Program-made: the position numbers and the translations under genes
Shown here: positions 12,919 through 15,776 of the stretch, piece after piece
Layout: the number at the start of each line of letters is the position of its first letter
Numbering within the stretch: the stretch's first letter is position 1
The notes under the pieces: generated by a model
Seen by the model: only the letters and a program-made list of their open reading frames with translations
What the model was told of the DNA's origin: nothing
The model's database searches: none
Assembly: GCA_963829055.1 (NCBI GenBank)
Contig: CAWHHI010000006.1
Span: 544,001 to 608,000, forward strand
From: an uncultured Gemmatimonadaceae bacterium
GTDB taxonomy: Bacteria; Gemmatimonadota; Gemmatimonadetes; Gemmatimonadales; Gemmatimonadaceae
DNA: 64,000 nt
Reading direction: 5' to 3'

Positions 12919-13521
12919 TCAAGTGTGAGTCGAGCTTCGAGCGCCCGCGACCAGAACGTCGAACGCGCCGATCGCGCGGGACTTCGCCAAGGGGTCGCGA
13001 AGTAGGCGCGCGCAGTGGTAGTAGCTGAGCACGACGCCGAACAGCTGAAAGGCGAACAGGTCCGGGTCGACGTCCGACCGAAAATGTCCGGCTTCTATCG
13101 TCAGGCGCACCGACCTCGCGAGCATCTCGAGCCACCGCTGTTGTTGCACGACGAGGGCGTCGCGCGCCGGGCCCGGGCGGTCGTCGAGCTCCGCGGCCGC
13201 GTGCATGAAAACGCACCCGCCGGGAAGGCTTTCATGCTGCTCCCACTGCAGCCAGTGCTCGAACAACGCGCGCAGCCGCGGTTCACCGCGAGGCGCCGTG
13301 AGCGCGGGTGCGACGACGACCTGCGTGAACTTCTCCGCCGCGGCGTTCAGGACGTCGACCTGCAGCGCCTCCTTGGAGTCGAAGTGCGCGAAGAGCCCGC
13401 TCTTGGACATGCCGACGTCCGCGGCGACTTTGCCGAGCGTGATGCCTTCGATGCCGTCGACGCTGGCGGCGCGTAGAGCGGTCTCGACGATCCGGCTGCG
13501 CGTGATGTTCCCCTTGGACAT
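12919..13521 (-). CDS. TetR-family transcriptional regulator
   Basis: ITLGKVAADVGMSKSGLFAHFDSKE HTH; PGGC motif. Confidence 0.93.
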   Translation of the reverse strand: MSKGNITRSRIVETALRAASVDGIEGITLGKVAADVGMSKSGLFAHFDSKEALQVDVLNAAAEKFTQVVVAPALTAPRGEPRLRALFEHWLQWEQHESLPGGCVFMHAAAELDDRPGPARDALVVQQQRWLEMLARSVRLTIEAGHFRSDVDPDLFAFQLFGVVLSYYHCARLLRDPLAKSRAIGAFDVLVAGARSSTHT

Positions 13522-13531
13522 ACGAAAACAA

Positions 13532-13549
13532 TACGACCGATCGGTCGTA
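13532..13549. promoter_or_regulatory. TetR operator palindrome
   Basis: Perfect 18-bp TACGACCGATCGGTCGTA just upstream of the tetR ATG. Confidence 0.75.
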
Positions 13550-13624
13550 AATAGCAAGATTCAATCTGCGCTTGAAAGAATTGCCTTGCGCGGAGGTGGG
13601 CTGGGCCGTTAAGGTGCTGGACCA

Positions 13625-13708
13625 ATGTCCAACCGCGCCGCCGCCACCTATTACTACTTTAGCTACTGGAAAACCTCCGGGAGCTACAGGCGCGCGCGCA
13701 CGATCTAG
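13625..13708 (+). CDS. Aromatic amino acid attenuator leader peptide [27 protein letters not shown]
   Basis: 27 codons with a YYYFSYW cluster (5 Tyr, 1 Phe, 1 Trp in total) upstream of aroF-pheA-aroH. Confidence 0.88.
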
Positions 13709-13735
13709 ATTCAGAACACCCGCACTGCCTGCGAC

Positions 13736-13770
13736 GAGCTCCCGAGATTCTCGGGGGCTCTTTTTTTTTT
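13736..13770 (+). terminator. Intrinsic terminator of the attenuator
   Basis: GAGCTCCCGAG-att-CTCGGGGGCTC followed by T10; the 5' arm can pair alternatively with CGGGAGCT at 13678-13685. Confidence 0.9.
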
Positions 13771-13798
13771 CCGCCTTTTGCCGGACAAGGAGTCTGAG

Positions 13799-14708
13799 AT
13801 GCTGGAGACCCGACTCACCGCCCGAACCACGCCGACCCAGGCCGCGACGGTCATTCGCATCGCGGACGAGACTGATCGGCGGTCCGGCATTCACCGTCAT
13901 TGCCGGACCATGCTCGGTCGAGGGGCGCGAGATGCTGCTCCGGTCCGCGGCGGTCGTACGCGCGTCCGGCGCGCGTCTCCTGCGCGGAGGCGCATTCAAG
14001 CCCCGAACCTCTCCGTATGCATTCCGCGGACTCGGCGCCGCCGCGCTGGAGATGTTGGCCGAGGCACGCGAGGTGACCGGGTTACCAATCGTGACGGAGC
14101 TGATGGACGCCCGGGACATCGACGCCGTCGATGCGGTTGCTGACCTCATCCAGATCGGCGCGCGGAACATGCAGAACTTCTCGCTGCTCGCTGCCGTTGG
14201 CGAGCGAGGCACGCCGGTGCTGCTCAAGCGCGGCATGTCGGCGACGGTGACCGAGCTCTTACTGGCGGCCGAGCACATCATGGCGCATGGGAACTCGCGA
14301 GTGATTCTGTGCGAGCGCGGCATCCGCACCTTCGAGACGTCCACGCGCAACACACTCGACATCTCGGCCATCCCCGTCCTGAAGCGTGAGACGCACCTGC
14401 CGGTGATCGTGGACCCGAGTCACGCCGCGGGCCGCGCCGATCTCGTGCCCGCGCTCGCCGCGGCGGCGGTTGCGGTCGGCGCGGACGGGTTGATCGTCGA
14501 AGTGCATCCAGATCCGGCGAGCGCGCTCTCGGACGGGGCGCAGTCGCTGACGCCGGAGGCGTTCGCTGACATGATGCGCATGCTCGCGCCGCTGGCGGAG
14601 GTGTGTGGCCGTCAGCTCGAGATTCCGATCGGGCTCCCGCTCGACGCGCACGACTCATCGCTGCTCGTCGAGAGTGGCTCGCACTCGGCGCTGCGAGTGT
14701 GCGCATGA
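13799..14708 (+). CDS. aroF: DAHP synthase type I-beta (frameshift near 13873)
   Basis: [62 protein letters not shown] before the ATG at 13799. Confidence 0.93.
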
Positions 14709-15371
14709 GCGTGCGCGGGAGCGAGATGCGAGTCGCGACCGCGCCGCGCGTCGCGTATCAGGGTGAGCCTGGCGCGTACGGCGAGATGGCGATCGCGCAG
14801 GAGTGGCGCGGCAACGCGACGGCGTTAGGTGCGCCGACGTTCGCCGAGGCCCTCGGTCAGCTCGGACGCGGCCGGGCGGACTTCGCGGTGATCCCCGTCT
14901 GGAATTCGACGATCGGGGACATCAAGGACACGACCGTGTTGCTGGCGCATCACGCGTCGCGTCTGGAGACGGTCTCCGAGCTCGTTGTCCCGGTCGTGCA
15001 CTGTCTGCTCGGGCTGCCTGGCGCGTCGTTCGCGACGGTGCGTTACGTCGGCAGTCATCCGACGGCGCTCGCGCAGTGTCGCCGGCTGTTCGGGGCGCCG
15101 CGTTCGCTGCAGCCCTGCGTGGCGCATGACACCGCCGGCGCCGCGCGCGAGCTTTCGACGTTAGGCATCCGCGACTCGGTTGCCGCGAAACGGCGCGGCA
15201 CCGTGGTTCGAGCCATACCAGTCTGCGGGCGCTGCGTCGCTGGCGGTGATCGCCGGCGCGGCGGTCGCACAGTTGTATGGTTTGGTCGTGATCGCCGAGG
15301 GGGTGCAGGACAATCCGGAGAACGCCACGCGGTTCGTGGTGGTCAAGGCACAGGACGGTGTGCGTTGGTGA
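14705..15371 (+). CDS. pheA: Prephenate dehydratase, catalytic domain only (frameshift near 15185)
   Basis: [47 protein letters not shown]. Confidence 0.85.
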
Positions 15372-15410
15372 CGTCTCGCCTCGAGCACCCAACCACAGGC
15401 GCAGCCGCGG

Positions 15411-15776
15411 ATGCGCGCCGTCCGCGGCGCTGTAACGGTGGACGCCGACACGCCGGCCGCGATTGACGCCGCCGTGCGTGAGCTGCTCGAACAGCTCACG
15501 GACGCCAATGCGATCGACTCGCGGGACATCGTGAGCGCCATCTTCTCCGCGACGCCCGACCTCCGCAGTCGCAACCCGGCCACGTCGGCTCGCACGTTAG
15601 GCTGGACGGACGTGCCGCTGATGGGAGTGGCCGAGTTCGAGACTGACGGTATGCTCGCGCGGTGCGTGCGCGTGATGCTGCACGTGAGCGTCGCCGACGG
15701 GCGGCGGCTGCAGGCCGTATATCTCGGCGGTGCTGCGTGCCTTCGTCCGGATCTGGCGTCGTTCGCAGAGGCCTGA
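15411..15776 (+). CDS. aroH: AroH-class chorismate mutase
   Basis: RAVRGAVTV, SAIFSATPDL, VPLM, RCVRVMLH, YLGGAACLRPDL. Confidence 0.9.
   Translation: MRAVRGAVTVDADTPAAIDAAVRELLEQLTDANAIDSRDIVSAIFSATPDLRSRNPATSARTLGWTDVPLMGVAEFETDGMLARCVRVMLHVSVADGRRLQAVYLGGAACLRPDLASFAEA

Follow-up and report, generated by a model that had tools for sequence, protein, structure and literature searches.

Ahead of the aroF-pheA-aroH operon of an uncultured Gemmatimonadaceae bacterium there is an element that is best explained, at a probability of about 0.88, as a ribosome-controlled transcription attenuator with a leaderless leader peptide, which would sense tyrosine and phenylalanine and turn on the operon when the supply of charged tRNA for Tyr or Phe runs low. 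Attenuation of the trpL/pheL type is an established mechanism and, as modelled here, the leader is one that has each computable property of a classical leader-peptide transcription attenuator. It lies in a window of 64,000 nucleotides, the whole stretch of DNA that was analysed (positions 544,001 to 608,000 of contig CAWHHI010000006.1, assembly GCA_963829055.1), and positions are counted from the first letter of that window. The 5' part of the element consists of a predicted promoter and a short ORF.

13586..13591, + strand: predicted -35 hexamer TTGCGC, identical in seven of seven genus copies although the flanks upstream differ
13610..13615, + strand: predicted -10 hexamer TAAGGT; a TAnnnT-like hexamer stands 5-10 nt 5' of the ATG across 78 leaders
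13625..13708, + strand: leader ORF of 27 codons without Shine-Dalgarno sequence, read from the sequence and kept in relatives
13649..13669, + strand: control codons Y-Y-Y-F-S-Y-W, codons 9-15 of the leader, read from the sequence

The two hexamers are 18 nt apart and the -10 ends 9 nt before the leader ATG, an arrangement that is seen throughout the family, where the leaders have a TTG-type hexamer, a gap of 16-19 nt and then a TAnnnT-like hexamer 5-10 nt 5' of their ATG. A promoter score that was devised ad hoc for this analysis, with the best in-frame ATG chosen for each leader, is 9.75 or higher in 69 of 78 leaders, compared with 0.22% of the 177,485 ATGs in the genome. Of the 78 leader ATGs, one is preceded by an SD-like motif. 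A generic sigma-70 promoter scan of the element returned 0 sites, the support for the promoter being comparative. A -10 about 5-10 nt 5' of the ATG together with the lack of a Shine-Dalgarno sequence is what a leaderless mRNA has, and the 9-nt gap suggests 0-4 nt of leader; it is strongly predicted that the transcript starts at the leader ATG or no more than 4 nt away, and that the peptide is translated from a leaderless or near-leaderless mRNA. The contigs of four of the six RNA rows (runs X15-X18) come for the most part from conserved stretches of aroF in other organisms; none spans 13568-13819, and they are uninformative either way.

The leader has four Tyr, one Phe and one Trp control codons, and this density of aromatic residues is rare in the genome. 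Amongst 61,554 short ATG ORFs (9-45 aa) at least six aromatics within eight residues occur in four, which have three distinct stops, and only at 13625-13708 are a promoter motif and a terminator both present. In one contig of run X1 the leader ORF has one extra in-frame codon.

Three genes for the synthesis of aromatic amino acids follow.

13787..13792, + strand: Shine-Dalgarno-like AAGGAG of aroF, outside the terminator, read from the sequence
13799..14708, + strand: aroF, DAHP synthase (Pfam DAHP_synth_1; orthologs) without N-terminal ferredoxin-like regulatory domain; frameshift near 13873-13875 in the assembly
14705..15371, + strand: pheA, prephenate dehydratase (Pfam PDT; orthologs) without ACT domain; frameshift near 15172 in the assembly
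15411..15776, + strand: aroH, chorismate mutase type I (Pfam CM_1), true start probably near 15365; extra base near 15404 in the assembly

The start of aroF is 90 nt past the leader stop. The regulatory domain PF18152 is absent from the intact genus ortholog of aroF (P0001) and present in the two paralogs in the genome (L002, L214), whilst the intact pheA ortholog (L006) is 221 aa long and has PDT only, pheA being the sole PDT match in a genome that is 86% complete. Because neither the DAHP synthase nor the dehydratase has a feedback domain, we infer that the attenuator would be the main control on both. A general rule that ties the leader to loss of the regulatory domain was rejected, as 43 of the 78 leader-bearing DAHP synthases retain the domain. 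Elsewhere, in L036 (3346-4125), prephenate dehydratase and type I chorismate mutase are fused in one frame.

Short-read contigs of near-identical strains have one base fewer near 13873-13875, 15172 and 15404, and since they are without the extra bases and the genus orthologs are intact, the three frameshifts are probably assembly errors; a pseudogene reading of the operon was rejected on the same grounds. Many genes of this assembly, in the aroF and trp operons for example, are split by single-base frameshifts, as expected for unpolished long reads. The divergent TetR gene (12919-13521) was also rejected as a part of the element, as other members of the genus have different neighbours. A perfect 18-bp palindrome (13532-13549), nearly conserved in L010 and L011, is found just upstream of the TetR gene and is probably its operator; a 14-bp core of it has one further copy in the genome (G000:C4:896670).

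The RNA ahead of aroF can form three helices that are mutually exclusive.

13660..13686, + strand: protector (1:2) hairpin, 13660-13670 with 13676-13686, from the fold; 95.5% of cells paired, 22 two-sided changes in 22 sequences
13678..13744, + strand: antiterminator (2:3), 13678-13685 with 13737-13744, extended by 13687-13691 with 13727-13731; 94.3% of cells paired, 8 two-sided changes
13736..13770, + strand: intrinsic terminator (3:4), 11-pair hairpin 13736-13760 of -19.6 kcal/mol, then T10 (13761-13770); 93.4% of cells paired, 31 two-sided changes

The strands of the antiterminator are CGGGAGCT (13678-85) and AGCTCCCG (13737-44), extended by CAGGC (13687-91) and GCCTG (13727-31). The region 13615-13790 folds with a z-score of -3.59, none of 200 shuffles being as good, and as the protector is present in its minimum-energy fold the leader has the complete classical layout of 1:2, 2:3 and 3:4. 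Two-sided changes exceed slid controls in all three helices amongst 22 aligned leaders, which were hand-picked as alignable and whose kinship inflates such counts. The antiterminator is the weakest of the three in this respect, with two-sided change at three pairs, a number reached by 30 of 500 shuffles.

Much of this had been anticipated in a preliminary description of the window, which proposed a trpL/pheL-type attenuator on a near-leaderless mRNA of a Gemmatimonadota-like host, a reading that conservation, covariation and geometry support well at the level of sequence. Translation confirms its 27-aa ORF with YYYFSYW, the hairpin with T10 and both antiterminator pairings are where it had placed them, as are the hexamers TTGCGC and TAAGGT, and the operon that it named from the ORFs has the Pfam domains expected. 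Its inventory of structures was incomplete, with terminator and antiterminator correct and the protector overlooked; a second correction concerns the frameshifts in all three genes. It had further suggested that conserved clusters of aromatic codons and covarying stems be looked for ahead of aroF orthologs, and both are found, as aromatic leaders at 78 of 97 family loci and as compensatory changes in the three helices.

The proposed switch would work as follows. A ribosome that stalls at any of codons 9-14 would sit over region 1, and region 2, left free, could then capture the terminator's 5' arm, leading to read-through. Once a ribosome has moved beyond codon 16-17 it would lie over region 2, so that the terminator at 13736-13770 would form. 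If the leader is not translated, the protector would be the first helix to form and termination would also be allowed. For the folding, the ribosome was modelled at equilibrium as a blocked stretch reaching 12-13 nt past the codon, an assumed footprint that is in keeping with the accessible part of PMC4833913. With a stall at codon 8 the protector is whole and from codon 9-10 onward it is eroded; the antiterminator has a probability of 0.98 for stalls at codons 9-14 and is lost by codon 16-17; with a footprint of at least 11 nt its probability is 0 once the stall is at codon 17 or later. The aromatic run therefore fills the productive window, and in this model a ribosome on the Tyr or Phe codons would spare region 2 and a later one would cover it. 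Without a ribosome, the equilibrium fold of an RNA ending at 13748 still prefers 2:3 (0.82), so the protector can work only if it is kinetically trapped.

The leader is not confined to this genome. It is present in all six other genomes of the genus, where identity begins at the -35 hexamer and the genes upstream differ. This clade of aroF was matched in 111 of 201 family genomes (E up to 1e-94), and 97 family loci, a subset of all matches taken from the clade matches and a further search, were examined. A candidate leader was found at 80 of them and two weak ones (L138, L184) were dropped, which leaves leader, terminator and antiterminator at 78; amongst the 17 without a leader by the detection rule, an aromatic ORF was overlooked by that rule at three (L144, L159, L178) and is doubtful at one (L187). 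A hairpin with a U-rich tail is found in all 78 leaders, and in 72 of them the 1:2 helix spans half of region 2 or more. Region 2 binds its own terminator arm with a mean of -17.9 kcal/mol over the 78 loci, compared with -13.0 for shuffles, and at 48 loci no more than two of 50 shuffles bind as well. A swap test between loci gives a modest result (median rank 0.16). The named relatives of highest identity are Gemmatimonadota, mostly Gemmatimonadaceae, and it is on these that the analysis based its assignment of the host.

That the leader senses tyrosine and phenylalanine is likely from the codons of its relatives. In the window 15-36 nt 5' of region 2, which holds 559 codons over the 78 leaders, there are 192 Tyr, 122 Phe and 14 Trp codons, and against a background of 2.4% Tyr, 3.5% Phe and 1.5% Trp this is an enrichment of 15-fold for Tyr and 6-fold for Phe and of less than 2-fold for Trp (2.5% versus 1.5%, p 0.05). 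The preliminary description had one leader sensing all three aromatic amino acids, of which tyrosine and phenylalanine stand; that tryptophan is sensed in this copy is doubtful, somewhat below even odds. The same attenuator would be truly trivalent if a stall at the Trp codon (W15) also gave read-through, which is compatible with the explanation preferred here. A modelled stall at W15 keeps the antiterminator at 0.98 as long as the footprint reaches no more than 13 nt beyond the first base of the A site, but this falls to 0.55 at 15 nt and to 0 at 17 nt, and as codon 15 is at the last productive position its contribution would probably be weak or nil. The codon starts 11 nt before region 2, closer than in Trp-only leaders, where the distances are 14-32 nt (L024, L027) and 15-21 nt in the genome's own trp leader. 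At least 13 nt separate a Trp codon from region 2 in 21 of the 78 family leaders, yet 25 of the 43 Trp codons in the family are in the slot of 9-14 nt, where TGG pairs within the protector. At the first base of the codon 17 of 22 sequences have the U-G pair of the Trp type and five the stronger C-G, and the Trp is retained in seven of seven genus assemblies; however, near-identical strains from three studies (runs X1, X3, X4) have Tyr-Arg in place of Tyr-Trp with the hairpin retained (-13.2 versus -13.5). A leader with a single Trp codon, trpL2, is reported in Streptomyces in the accessible text of PMC8079986, whilst here the demand for tryptophan is served by a separate leader and a separate DAHP synthase in the trp operon. 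It is because of the low enrichment of Trp, the place of W15 at the edge of the window and in the protector, the Arg of near-identical strains and the separate Trp leader that sensing of all three amino acids is held doubtful.

The case for three-way sensing is stronger, to judge by codon placement, in the leaders of Acidobacteriota than in this copy. Of 16 named loci there, 11 have a leader, in each case with Phe, Tyr and Trp codons at least 18 nt before the predicted antiterminator; these leaders (L054, L061, L062, L071, L072, L076, L086, L099, L103, L106, L107) are the best candidates for such sensing.

Within the family the mix of codons may follow the operon downstream, with means of 2.33 Phe and 2.20 Tyr at 40 loci of the pheA type and of 0.83 Phe, 4.11 Tyr and no Trp at 18 loci of the CM2/tyrA type. 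As the tree gives only one independent pair on starred branches and three on all branches, this pattern of Tyr-heavy leaders before CM2/tyrA and Phe-richer ones before pheA is suggestive only. In two loci from other families of the order (L024, L027) the leaders 5' of aroF are Trp-only and the gene after aroF is presumably trpE-like, as recognised from its translation. The leader-bearing aroF of L017 precedes a gene that is presumably isocitrate lyase-like, again as recognised from its translation.

In principle the leader could act on the translation of aroF, or through nascent-chain arrest or coupling by a stalling peptide, instead of by codon-dependent termination of transcription, and the Arg-rich tails that are frequent at the ends of family leaders would fit with this. 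It is nevertheless an improbable account, as the peptide is unconserved in sequence apart from its aromatic content, the aroF Shine-Dalgarno sequence is outside the terminator hairpin with the leader stop 90 nt away from the aroF start, every one of the 78 leaders has the hairpin and U-rich tail, and the trp and his operons are preceded by cognate leaders built in the same way. Least probable is a constitutive terminator or a ligand- or protein-binding RNA with an incidental ORF, for although an Rfam scan to E 10 gave five matches, all under the gathering score and none to an attenuator family (Trp_leader, Phe_leader and others), an incidental ORF is countered by the enrichment of aromatic codons, the length changes of leaders that preserve the reading frame, the genome-wide uniqueness of the ORF and the cognate pathway downstream.

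The design of the Tyr/Phe attenuator recurs in this genome 5' of the trp operon, with a WWW leader, and 5' of the his operon, with a His-rich one. The Trp leader (..RYWWWY.., L214:708-920, G000:C6:32707 onward) has the promoter motif, an antiterminator and a terminator, and is followed by an aroE-like gene, trp genes, CM2, a regulated DAHP synthase and tyrA. The His-rich leader is leaderless (MIAASVHHHTHHSH.., L215, G000:C3:476153-476224) and has a terminator; the gene downstream, recognised from its translation, is presumably hisG-like.

Amongst known systems, those closest to the leader include aroR-aroF of Corynebacterium glutamicum and the uORFC-13-1 motif of Acholeplasma. In aroR-aroF a leader peptide with Phe and Tyr codons precedes a DAHP synthase operon under ribosome-mediated attenuation (Mentz 2013, PMC4046766; PMC11802643, accessible text). 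AroR has only F-Y-F and is described in the accessible part of PMC11802643 as responding to Phe and not Tyr; a Tyr codon can be present without a response to Tyr, so codon content is no proof of sensing. The leader described here has four Tyr, one Phe and one Trp and is from a different phylum, the two RNAs being compared by their descriptions. The uORFC-13-1 motif, a predicted uORF with terminator 5' of aroF, is known from Acholeplasma only, with 24 representatives, and is described with an RBS and as Phe-sensing (Brewer 2021, PMC8632094, accessible text); by that description it is set apart from the present leader, which is leaderless with the full 1:2/2:3/3:4 design. A YYYFY leader was found 5' of an Acholeplasma aroF (L073). 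Short ORFs rich in Phe and Tyr also occur 5' of aroF in Clostridia, Acholeplasma, Treponema and an actinomycete (L040, L052, L069, L090, L098, L073, L114, L065), and for those examined the antiterminators are weak in the fold test.

Control codons, protector, antiterminator, terminator and U-tract are shared with enterobacterial trpL, pheL, pheM, hisL and leuL, as these are described in part in the accessible text of PMC11802643 and PMC2659441, but the leader differs from them in being unmatched by the Rfam models of these families up to E 10, in its leaderless start and in its target, the entry enzyme of the common pathway. Leaderless leader peptides are known in Streptomyces (PMC8079986, accessible text), and mycobacterial poly-Cys sORFs are reported as leaderless leader-peptide attenuators (bioRxiv 10.1101/834739, accessible text); the likeness to these actinobacterial leaders is in a promoter that abuts the leader ATG and the lack of a Shine-Dalgarno sequence. 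Of the eight Streptomyces leaders listed in the accessible part of PMC8079986 none is of the Tyr/Phe type and none precedes a DAHP synthase. A literature search that excluded supplements, and outside which subscription papers mostly lay, found no attenuator or leader peptide described in Gemmatimonadota, and in the accessible text of PMC4833913, PMC2965389 and PMC2659441 there is no such case, the name of the phylum being absent from that of the first two. The novelty suggested in the preliminary description holds to that extent and not beyond, as Phe/Tyr leaders before DAHP synthase and leaderless leaders both have precedents; what is added is an example of a textbook mechanism from another phylum.

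A far wider reading is also conceivable, in which one leaderless attenuator would read all three aromatics, take the place of allosteric feedback in an aroF-pheA-aroH operon of reduced, stripped-down make-up, and belong to a wide uncatalogued family of DAHP-synthase attenuators in Gemmatimonadota, Acidobacteriota and Bacillota, with a codon mix retuned to the downstream branch genes (Tyr-heavy with tyrA, Phe-richer with pheA, Trp-only with trpE and fully trivalent in Acidobacteriota). Taken as a whole this is unlikely.

The attenuator proposed here would add the entry step of the shikimate pathway to those under ribosome-mediated amino-acid sensing, in a soil phylum that is abundant and barely studied, and it yields an unannotated small ORF and an RNA family that is unlisted in Rfam. 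The natural series of Tyr-heavy, Phe/Tyr, Trp-only and trivalent leaders would suit tests of how the position and number of codons relate to specificity, and may equally suit asking whether attenuation replaces the feedback of the enzyme.
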